Positions 18,553 to 19,718 of a stretch of DNA of 64,000 nucleotides are shown piece after piece. The stretch is from Escherichia coli (GTDB lineage: Bacteria; Pseudomonadota; Gammaproteobacteria; Enterobacterales; Enterobacteriaceae), in assembly GCF_013122565.1 (NCBI RefSeq), contig NZ_CP053258.1. One strand, 5' to 3'. The notes under the pieces were generated by a model. The model did no database searches and was not told the DNA's origin. It saw nothing but the letters and a program-made list of their open reading frames with translations. The translations under genes were made by a program, and so were the position numbers. Position 1 is the stretch's first letter. Every line of letters begins with the position of its first letter.

Positions 18553-19718
18553 AAACTGTTTTTCACAGCTTATATATGATCAAATACTCCTTACATAAAT
18601 AAGGAGAACAAAATGGAACTTAAAAAACTGATGGAACATATTTCTATTATCCCCGATTACAGACAAGCCTGGAAAGTAGAATATAAATTGTCAGATATTC
18701 TACTATTGTCTATTTGTGCCGTCATTTCTGGTGCAGAAGGTTGGGAAGATATAGAGGATTTTGGTGAAACGCATCTCGATTTTTTGAAGCAATATGGTGA
18801 TTTTGAAAATGGTATTCCTGTCCATGATACCATTGCCAGAGTTGTATCCTGTATTAGTCCTGCAAAATTTCACGAGTGCTTTATTAACTGGATGCGTGAT
18901 TGCCATTGTTCAGATGATAAAGACGTCATTGCAATTGATGGGAAAACGCTCCGGCACTCTTATGATAAGAGTCGTCGCAGGGGAGCGATTCATGTCATTA
19001 GTGCGTTCTCAACAATGCACAGTCTGGTTCTCGGACAGATCAAGACGGATGAAAAATCTAATGAGATTACAGCTATTCCTGAACTTCTTAACATGATGGA
19101 TATTAAAGGAAAAATCATCACAACGGATGCGATGGTGTGCCAGAAAGATATTGCAGAAAAGATACAAAAACAGGGAGGTGATTATTTATTCGCTGTAAAG
19201 GGAAATCAGGGGCGACTAAATAAAGCCTTCGAGGAAAAATTTCCGCTGAAAGAATTAAATAATCCAAAGCATGACAGTTACGCAATTAGTGAAAAGAGTC
19301 ACGGCAGAGAAGAAATCCGTCTTCATATTGTTTGCGATGTTCCTGATGAACTTATTGATTTCACGTTTGAATGGAAAGGACTGAAAAAATTATGCGTGGC
19401 AGTCTCCTTTCGGTCAATAATAGCAGAACAAAAGAAAGAGCCAGAAATGACGGTCAGATATTATATCAGTTCTGCTGATTTAACCGCAGAGAAGTTTGCG
19501 ACAGCGATTCGAAATCACTGGCACGTGGAGAATAAGTTGCTCTGGCGTCTGGATGTAGTAATGAATAAAAGACGACTGCAAAATAGGAAGAGGAAACGTT
19601 CAGGGATAAGACATATTGCAATTAATATTTTGACGAAAGATAAGGTATTCAAGCACGGTTAAGACGTTCGATGAAGACAGCGACTACCTGCGTCAGTCTT
19701 TGTGAGGAGCGGACTCTA
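18553..19718 (+). mobile_element. H-repeat (ISAs1-family) element, near full length
   Basis: Contains the 349-aa H-repeat transposase ORF; its 5' flank (ttatatatgatcaaatactccttacataaataaggag) is repeated at about 21220 upstream of a decayed second copy. Boundaries are approximate. Confidence 0.75.
18613..19662 (+). CDS. H-repeat-associated (ISAs1-family) transposase, possibly C-terminally frameshifted
   Basis: 349 aa starting [32 protein letters not shown], matching recalled H-rpt proteins of Rhs elements and O-antigen clusters; the tail (…[13 protein letters not shown]…KHG*) departs from the recalled canonical C-terminus, which reappears out of frame after the stop. Confidence 0.8.

Follow-up and report, generated by a model that had tools for sequence, protein, structure and literature searches.

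The window analysed here is a 64,000-nucleotide stretch of Escherichia coli DNA that holds colanic-acid genes, galF (17173-18078), an O-antigen cluster, gnd, ugd, wzz and the his operon. The O-antigen cluster belongs to the O3 type: along 24 kb its identity is 97.3-97.8% to 16 complete E. coli genomes in which wzx and wzy are annotated as "O3 family", and no complete genome is closer over the cluster; for the housekeeping stretch 42000-50000 the best identity among 5,426 genomes is 98.8%. Between galF and the first gene of the cluster, a GT4 glycosyltransferase on the plus strand (19849-21012, as annotated by RefSeq in the orthologous loci), sits the JUMPstart/ops RNA element of the O-antigen operon leader (18337-18375, plus strand; Rfam RF01707, 56.9 bits against a gathering threshold of 35, E = 7.4e-12). 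An insertion sequence begins 93 bp downstream of JUMPstart/ops, in the operon's orientation, and it is this element that we describe.

The element is a copy of ISEc1, the H-repeat (H-rpt) of the ISAs1 family, and spans 18469-19732 on the plus strand. By blastn, ISEc1 positions 1-1283 align to window 18469-19724 at 90% identity, and identity to ISEc1 copies over the whole element is 90-93%; such copies were found in 5,249 of 5,426 complete E. coli genomes. With the H-repeats of E. coli (ydcC, yhhI, ybfD and the Rhs-associated copies) it shares the single-ORF layout, the DDE_Tnp_1_assoc plus DDE_Tnp_1 architecture of NF033564, and an intact left terminal inverted repeat (CAGGGAAAGATCAC, 18469-18482, plus strand) identical to that of ydcC and of the O157 copy. 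It differs from them in its length of 1,264 bp (intact copies are 1,291 bp), in four indels at its 3' end, in a 349-aa product whose C-terminus is rewritten and truncated, and in a degenerate right inverted repeat. The ORF (18613-19662, plus strand) matches Pfam DDE_Tnp_1_assoc (PF13808, 8.7e-34) and DDE_Tnp_1 (PF01609, 3.1e-25), as well as NCBIfam transpos_ISAs1 (NF033564) over profile positions 1-314 of 314 (1.2e-112, 376.2 bits, cutoff 70); these matches and the family alignment bear out the first-pass annotation, which had described a 349-aa H-rpt reading frame with an atypical C-terminus.

The surroundings of the insertion recur elsewhere. The 93-bp left flank (18376-18468, plus strand) is found next to other O-locus copies of ISEc1 (blastn to loci L010, L011, L009 and L008, 90-91%), and it ends with the same 7 bp (18462-18468, CAGGGAA) with which the IS begins. 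The two flanks do not match each other (...GATCAGGGAA on the left, TTGTTAGGTT... on the right), and the intact ydcC, O157 and O19 copies likewise have no obvious target-site duplication. Beyond the GT4 gene lies a second, much older H-repeat remnant (21136-21815, plus strand), recognized by blastn, tblastn and alignment, with 70-76% identity to ISEc1, an internal deletion of about 475 bp and its pieces in three frames. Two H-repeats of the same orientation thus bracket the GT4 gene 19849-21012; both are decayed, and the flanking duplication of a composite transposon is not visible at this locus.

To define the lesions, the DNA was aligned with two intact 1,291-bp ISEc1 copies encoding 378 aa, namely ydcC (GN04530, L002) and the Rhs-associated copy of O157:H7 Z866 (L003). 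Small indels had been suspected from the letters alone, and the alignment reveals exactly four against both references, all within the last 170 bp of the transposase gene: an additional A in the run 19567-19570; a 13-bp deletion (CCGCAGAATTATT) between 19598 and 19599; the loss of one G (GG to G) at 19653/19654; and a 14-bp deletion (TGGACAGAAACTAT) between 19686 and 19687. Together they account for the length of the element (1,291 + 1 - 13 - 1 - 14 = 1,264, as observed). Since the basis is an alignment and not a statistic, chance is not an issue here.

The indels come in two pairs, each of which restores the frame. The +1/-13 pair, with a net loss of 12 bases, exchanges canonical ...NEDDCKIRRGNAAELFSG... 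for an altered 14-residue stretch, within which the frameshifted patch proper (19567-19599, plus strand) encodes 11 residues in place of EDDCKIRRGNAAELF. The single-base deletion then brings a premature TAA (19660-19662) into frame, so that the feature 19653-19662 (plus strand) ends the product at 349 instead of 378 aa, with 11 residues rewritten, about nine conserved codons deleted and the last 29 residues lost. The rest of the canonical C-terminus is still legible out of frame at 19653-19719 (plus strand): by three-frame translation and alignment, the tail resumes in the frame of 19542 for 10 residues at about 19653-19686 (canonical AGLRRKMRKAA), and past the 14-bp deletion it is back in the frame of the ORF at 19690-19719, reading ASVFVRSGL-stop (canonical ASVLAGSGLS-stop), with its TAG at 19717-19719 one codon ahead of the canonical TAA. 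The string acctgcgtcagtctttgtgaggagcggactc (19686-19716), which had been quoted as canonical-like coding sequence running on out of frame after the stop, is indeed the continuation of the canonical tail. Programmed frameshifting as a rescue is ruled out, as the 13- and 14-bp deletions remove conserved codons in any frame.

The two ends of the element differ in their divergence. Over 18469-19567 the window copy differs from intact copies by 5.0-7.2%, against 4.3-5.1% among the intact copies themselves; over 19568-19732 it differs by 18.8-19.4%, against 1.6-3.1% among them. A change-point test on divergence gives a chi-square of 107, a value matched in 0 of 2,000 permutations. Divergence reaches about 31% over the last ~65 bp, for which uncertainty of the local alignment around the indels could partly account. 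The coding changes follow the same division, with 18 synonymous and 8 nonsynonymous differences in codons 1-286, 8 and 1 in codons 287-318 (together 26:9 for codons 1-318), and 6 and 12 in codons 319-378; indels hit 12 codons, all of them in this last segment. Because its divergence is low and mostly synonymous, the 5' part appears to have diverged under selection, as would a live ISEc1 lineage, and only the last ~165 bp have the look of long decay. We infer from these patterns that the copy is a mosaic, consisting of an old 3' stump and a 5' portion of about 1.03 kb that was replaced. The suggestion of the first-pass annotation that the insertion is old would accordingly be right only for the lesion-bearing 3' end, which is ~19% diverged, fixed, and identical in all the O3-type loci that we extracted; it does not hold for the 5' ~1.03 kb, with its 5-7% of mostly synonymous differences against 4-5% between intact copies. 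An origin of the divergent tail in the lineage of the second remnant was considered and rejected: the tail has no match to 21136-21815, while canonical ISEc1 does match there.

The sister loci point the same way. The 165-bp tail is 100% identical in eight extracted E. coli O3-type loci and the window. Two natural variants reveal that the old and the replaced portions can come apart. In KMi029 and 2022CK-00450, a complete ISEc1 of 1,292 bp, whose right end is canonical, directly abuts the resident copy, which there starts at ISEc1 position 933 (window 19401) and extends to the decayed end; the complete ISEc1 shares its first 932 bp, without a difference, with the ordinary E. coli O3 copy, and removal of 359 bp from the KMi029-type arrangement yields the ordinary one. 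The two 933-1028 segments are 99-100% identical to each other, and recombination between them would give rise to the ordinary arrangement; the reverse direction is also possible. Z1323CEC0013 departs from the other O3 copies by about 5.6% across the left flank and the IS as far as 19557, and at 19497-19557 its states are canonical; from that point to 19900 it has zero differences from them, which we read as a crossover inside the IS at 19557/19568, just ahead of the first indel. As an observation in its own right, O3-type strains show three different 5' configurations.

It could instead be that there is no mosaic, and that a single, uniformly old insertion has mutated faster at its 3' end through a hotspot or locally relaxed constraint. 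All parts are collinear with ISEc1, and no donor of the 5' part was identified, as such a history would have it. After inactivation, however, one rate of drift is expected throughout, yet intact copies are no nearer to one another than the 5' 1.03 kb is to them, and its differences are mostly synonymous; moreover, the KMi029-type loci hold a canonical 3' end beside the decayed one, and the switch at 19557/19568 in Z1323CEC0013 is sharp. We therefore regard a uniform age as improbable, though it is the best placed of the alternatives to the mosaic remnant that we favour.

That this remnant is inactive, as had been thought probable, is well supported by five independent lines of comparative sequence evidence: the loss of the conserved tail, the replacement of invariant residues, the degenerate right repeat, the neutral drift and the frameshifts in sister loci. 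The alignment took in 23 full-length relatives of 377-378 aa, the most distant at 63% identity, from E. coli, Salmonella, Citrobacter, Serratia, Dickeya and Raoultella. All of them retain the canonical tail, the motif NEDDCxIRRGxAAELFSGIRH...FKAGLRRKMRxAAMDRxYLASVLAGxGxS being present in 23 of 23, and alignment columns 319-378 include many invariant positions. Three positions that do not vary among the 23 are changed in the window protein (H24Y, G175V and H310L); it retains D109, D172 and E306, also in invariant columns, which the DDE_Tnp_1 pattern suggests to be the DDE triad. The right terminal inverted repeat (19719-19732, plus strand) reads GTAATCCAACTTTG where the canonical sequence is GTAATCTTGCCCTG, its terminal CCCTG now being CTTTG; reverse-complemented, the right end is CAAAGTTGGATTAC against CAGGGCAAGATTAC, with 9 of 14 positions matching.

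The changes that followed the split from the E. coli O3 copies fit this picture. Codons 1-318 have acquired 10 nonsynonymous and 4 synonymous changes, a small sample of 14 substitutions, which fits neutrality (79% nonsynonymous expected at random) and differs from the 11 nonsynonymous to 25 synonymous found between intact copies (Fisher p = 0.012); the post-split nonsynonymous changes at invariant residues are L26F, I29T, R76G, A131V, F132S and G175V. Seven of the eight inspected E. coli O3 loci have one A more after 19383 (A6 to A7), a further +1 frameshift, and in five of those seven it divides the ORF into pieces of 288 and 71 aa; in KMi029 and 2022CK-00450, which are also A7 loci, the annotation gives a frameshifted pseudogene and a 71-aa piece, and in Z1323CEC0013, the eighth locus, a pseudogene without its N-terminus. 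The ISAs1 pieces that RefSeq lists for E. coli O3-type loci (WP_016242248.1 or WP_072658085.1, 288 aa, and WP_016242246.1, 71 aa) represent the same insertion with the same indels and an identical 165-bp tail; their ORF is split by the A7 slip, whereas the window, with A6, reads through to 349 aa, and the window alone has T33S, G175V and a G-to-A change at 19567. Since the four indels are common to all 16 complete genomes, they must be older than the split of the window locus from the E. coli O3 loci.

No intact reference sharing this C-terminus or this length was found, and the exact 349-aa protein occurs on one contig among ~15 billion proteins. The inspected homologues of about 345-350 aa were rejected as intact references: P0031 and P0060 are without their N-terminus, P0037, P0045 and P0050 keep a canonical tail but have internal deletions, part of P0007 is duplicated internally, and P0033 is frameshifted in a different way. 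Full-length matches to the tail 19568-19732 come from O3-type loci only, so the variant is that of a single locus. Measured against a working, autonomous ISAs1 element, the copy has neither an intact full-length transposase nor a right end that matches the left, its change since the split is neutral, and it occupies one locus. A protein may well still be made from the 349-aa ORF, as a good ribosome-binding site, AAGGAG, precedes its ATG by 8 bases.

Structure comparison offers one idea of what has been lost. A Foldseek comparison places the canonical 378-aa protein closest to the Tn5/IS4-type DDE transposases (1b7e, the Tn5 transposase inhibitor; E = 7.6e-4, TM 0.37), at 9% sequence identity; a PDB sequence search with the canonical protein gave no meaningful match (best E-value 0.82). 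In the low-confidence model of the canonical protein, as in Tn5, C-terminal helices come after an RNase-H-like DDE core. The C-terminal helices of Tn5 serve dimerisation or synapsis, and by analogy one idea is that the lost ISEc1 tail helices might do the same; the AlphaFold model of the canonical protein (mean pLDDT 60, with residues 318-378 at 44-54) is too weak to assign the tail a role.

Another reading is that the remnant is kept for a host function, either as a truncated protein that regulates or inhibits other ISEc1 copies or as stump DNA or RNA that works in the O3 operon leader. In its favour are the match of the canonical protein to the Tn5 inhibitor, a protein that acts as an inhibitor of transposition, the position of the element in a transcribed leader after JUMPstart, and the complete identity of the 165-bp tail in nine O3-type loci, where neighbouring sequence differs by 1.5-3.4%. 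The identity is only marginal, however: at the flank rate of 25/1435 about 2.9 differences would be expected in 165 bp, so that zero has an estimated P of ~0.06. Against it, the coding part drifts neutrally and is frameshifted further in seven of the eight inspected sister loci, JUMPstart is the only Rfam family detected, and the promoter-like sites in 18079-19900 (8, with 5.4 ± 2.0 expected) show no clear excess. We consider retention for a host function quite unlikely.

Less probable again, and in our estimate very unlikely, is that the element is still active and that its 349-aa protein is a working transposase of naturally reduced length. The ORF is uninterrupted, keeps D109, D172 and E306, matches the NCBIfam ISAs1 model end to end over positions 1-314, and follows a strong ribosome-binding site, which all speaks for this reading; but its tail is in no full-length relative, the protein is found on that one contig only, two invariant residues, G175 and H310, have changed, the right inverted repeat has degenerated, drift after the split looks neutral, and seven of the eight inspected sister loci carry a further frameshift. 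That the frameshifts are sequencing or assembly errors of a short-read (Logan) assembly, a suspicion fed by the identity of the window to the Logan contig from SRR11451224 and by the one sister-locus difference that is a homopolymer length (6 A versus 7 A after 19383), is already refuted for the four indels, which cannot be an assembly artefact because 16 independently assembled complete E. coli genomes match 19480-19900 full length with all four (421 to 421 bases, in one piece of ungapped length), which were confirmed base by base in the eight extracted loci, and of which the 13- and 14-bp deletions are atypical of read errors.

Together, these results favour, with a probability that we put at roughly 0.88, a resident and immobilised ISEc1 copy in the 5' leader of an O3-type O-antigen operon. 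On this reading, four small indels in the last 170 bp would have inactivated the transposase gene while the right terminal repeat also decayed; given the indels and the decayed repeat, neither a normal transposase nor mobilisation as a two-ended element is to be expected. The element would be passively transcribed through as part of the RfaH-dependent operon leader. A scan of 18079-19900 found no terminator-like site on the plus strand inside the IS (terminator-like hits lie on the minus strand only), and since the IS follows JUMPstart in the same orientation, the O3 genes would have to be transcribed through it. The old 3' stump would stay linked to the O3-specific genes, while the 5' ~1.03 kb and the upstream flank would have been replaced through homologous recombination, with ordinary ISEc1 copies, or other O-antigen loci with an H-repeat at the same site, as likely partners. 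H-repeats at this position could in this way act as portable homology for the reassortment of O-antigen loci.

Candidate partners of this kind do exist. NCTC9088 and strain A30 have an intact 378-aa ISEc1 at the same post-JUMPstart site of another cluster type, following the same ~85-bp post-JUMPstart sequence; the same flank sequence adjoins ISEc1 within the O19 cluster, and about 100 genomes match a junction query at 89.6%. A bolder extension would make the post-JUMPstart H-repeats a shared homology cassette for recombination at the 5' boundary of serogroups, with the 165-bp stump (19568-19732) as the fixed scar of the event by which the galF-JUMPstart region of E. coli became linked to the O3-specific genes, a scar maybe kept as part of the operon leader; we hold this to be a speculative and rather doubtful proposal.

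The closest published parallel comes from the group D2 cluster of Salmonella enterica, whose recombination junction holds an H-repeat remnant that has been proposed to have mediated the recombination (the model of Xiang, Hobbs and Reeves, PMC3715488). Like the window copy, that remnant is a decayed H-repeat inside an O-antigen cluster at a boundary between segments of different ancestry. The recombination proposed for D2 has its counterpart in the O3-type loci, with the crossover inside the H-repeat in Z1323CEC0013 and with 5' configurations that vary between strains. The two differ in position, the window copy lying at the extreme 5' end, between JUMPstart and the first gene, and the D2 remnant between two blocks of sugar-pathway genes. 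A part of the window copy in mediating cluster assembly is our interpretation. IS elements are also reported to drive gene replacement in O-antigen clusters (PMC4379981; PMC7685785), and full-text searches for the H-repeat of the O3 cluster returned general statements only (PMC3715488, PMC4379981, PMC7685785, PMC9705854). The locus fits the published view that H-repeats and other IS mark, and probably mediate, O-antigen recombination junctions.

In itself the feature is an ordinary molecular fossil of an already known kind. The orthologous copies already carry RefSeq annotations as ISAs1 fragments or pseudogenes, and the sole trait specific to the window is an allele without the extra A7 slip, hence a product of 349 aa; the consequence for annotation is that the copy should be labelled an ISEc1/H-repeat pseudogene or remnant and not a transposase gene. 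For O-antigen evolution its value is modest, as a clean example of an IS remnant whose parts are of different ages. The three 5' configurations, and the intact ISEc1 at the same site elsewhere, fit a reshuffling of O-antigen clusters at H-repeat and IS junctions, and the mosaic ages and strain variants amount to a small refinement, mainly for our understanding of how O-antigen loci evolve.

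The decayed 165-bp stump that forms the diverged 3' end of the H-repeat (window 19568-19732) is the same, base for base, in the window and in all eight E. coli O3 loci that we extracted. In the sequence adjoining it, the window and these loci are 1.5-3.4% apart; the lack of differences in the stump is a marginal deviation from expectation (about 2.9 differences, P about 0.06 by our estimate). The Z1323CEC0013 locus (L005) is about 5.6% different from the other O3 loci across the post-galF flank and IS (equivalent to window 18311-19557), and is identical to them from 19557 to 19900. 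This pattern marks a recombination crossover within the IS of Z1323CEC0013, just upstream of the first indel; its IS copy additionally lacks 1 bp immediately 5' of the ATG. Two further O3 strains, KMi029 (locus L016, 1498-3121) and 2022CK-00450 (L014), carry a complete 1,292-bp ISEc1 with the canonical right end; the resident copy, starting at ISEc1 position 933, follows it with nothing in between, so that canonical and decayed 3' ends lie 332 bp apart at a single locus.

NCTC9088 (locus L010, 4332-5625) and A30 (L011) have an intact ISEc1 encoding 378 aa at the same post-JUMPstart position in a different cluster type, in which acetyltransferase genes are followed by rfbB and rfbA; a query with the NCTC9088-type junction finds matches in about 100 complete genomes, and the right end of this ISEc1 is slightly changed (GTAATCTTGCCTTA). 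H-repeats are present at other positions within O-antigen regions too: in ECOR29 (L008, 2991-4280) a frameshifted copy separates gnd from ugd, and the O19:H7 strain 730V1 (L009, 9332-10622) has an intact copy, again of 378 aa, between two glycosyltransferase genes of the O19 cluster.

The left flank of the IS (window 18376-18468; some 80-93 bp) is found again, at 90-91% identity, adjacent to other ISEc1 copies of O loci or in their vicinity: in the NCTC9088 type (L010 4248-4338), at the internal copy of the O19 cluster (L009 9244-9322), and at the gnd-ugd copy of ECOR29 (L008 2233-2310). The start of this flank resembles the left repeat of the IS (GGGGAAGATCATC), and the flank may be a leftover of some other element that moves together with the H-repeat. 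Its last 7 bp, CAGGGAA (window 18462-18468), match the opening 7 bp of the IS. In every O3-type locus they abut the left repeat, with GAGGGAA as the version in Z1323CEC0013; the motif is absent before the left repeat at the NCTC9088-type junction. This CAGGGAA could be what is left of a previous copy that received the present 5' part as an insertion.

A second H-repeat remnant, in a far more advanced state of decay, is located between the GT4 glycosyltransferase gene and wzx (window 21136-21815, + strand), where matches to ISEc1 positions 57-475, 950-1127 and 1212-1291 at 70-76% identity are spread over three frames, with an internal deletion of about 475 bp; the GT4 gene (19849-21012) is thus flanked on both sides by H-repeats in the same orientation. 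Extra IS insertions occur just downstream of the H-repeat in some other O3-type loci: ISVsa5 ahead of the GT4 gene in IAL7252 (L006 2954-4162), and ISEc45 inside a truncated GT4 gene in HSP425 (L015 2422-3021).

No complete E. coli genome exceeds 98.8% identity to a housekeeping stretch of the window (42000-50000), or 97.8% to the O3 region (17000-41000). The source strain therefore belongs to a somewhat divergent Escherichia lineage, one unrepresented among the complete genomes.
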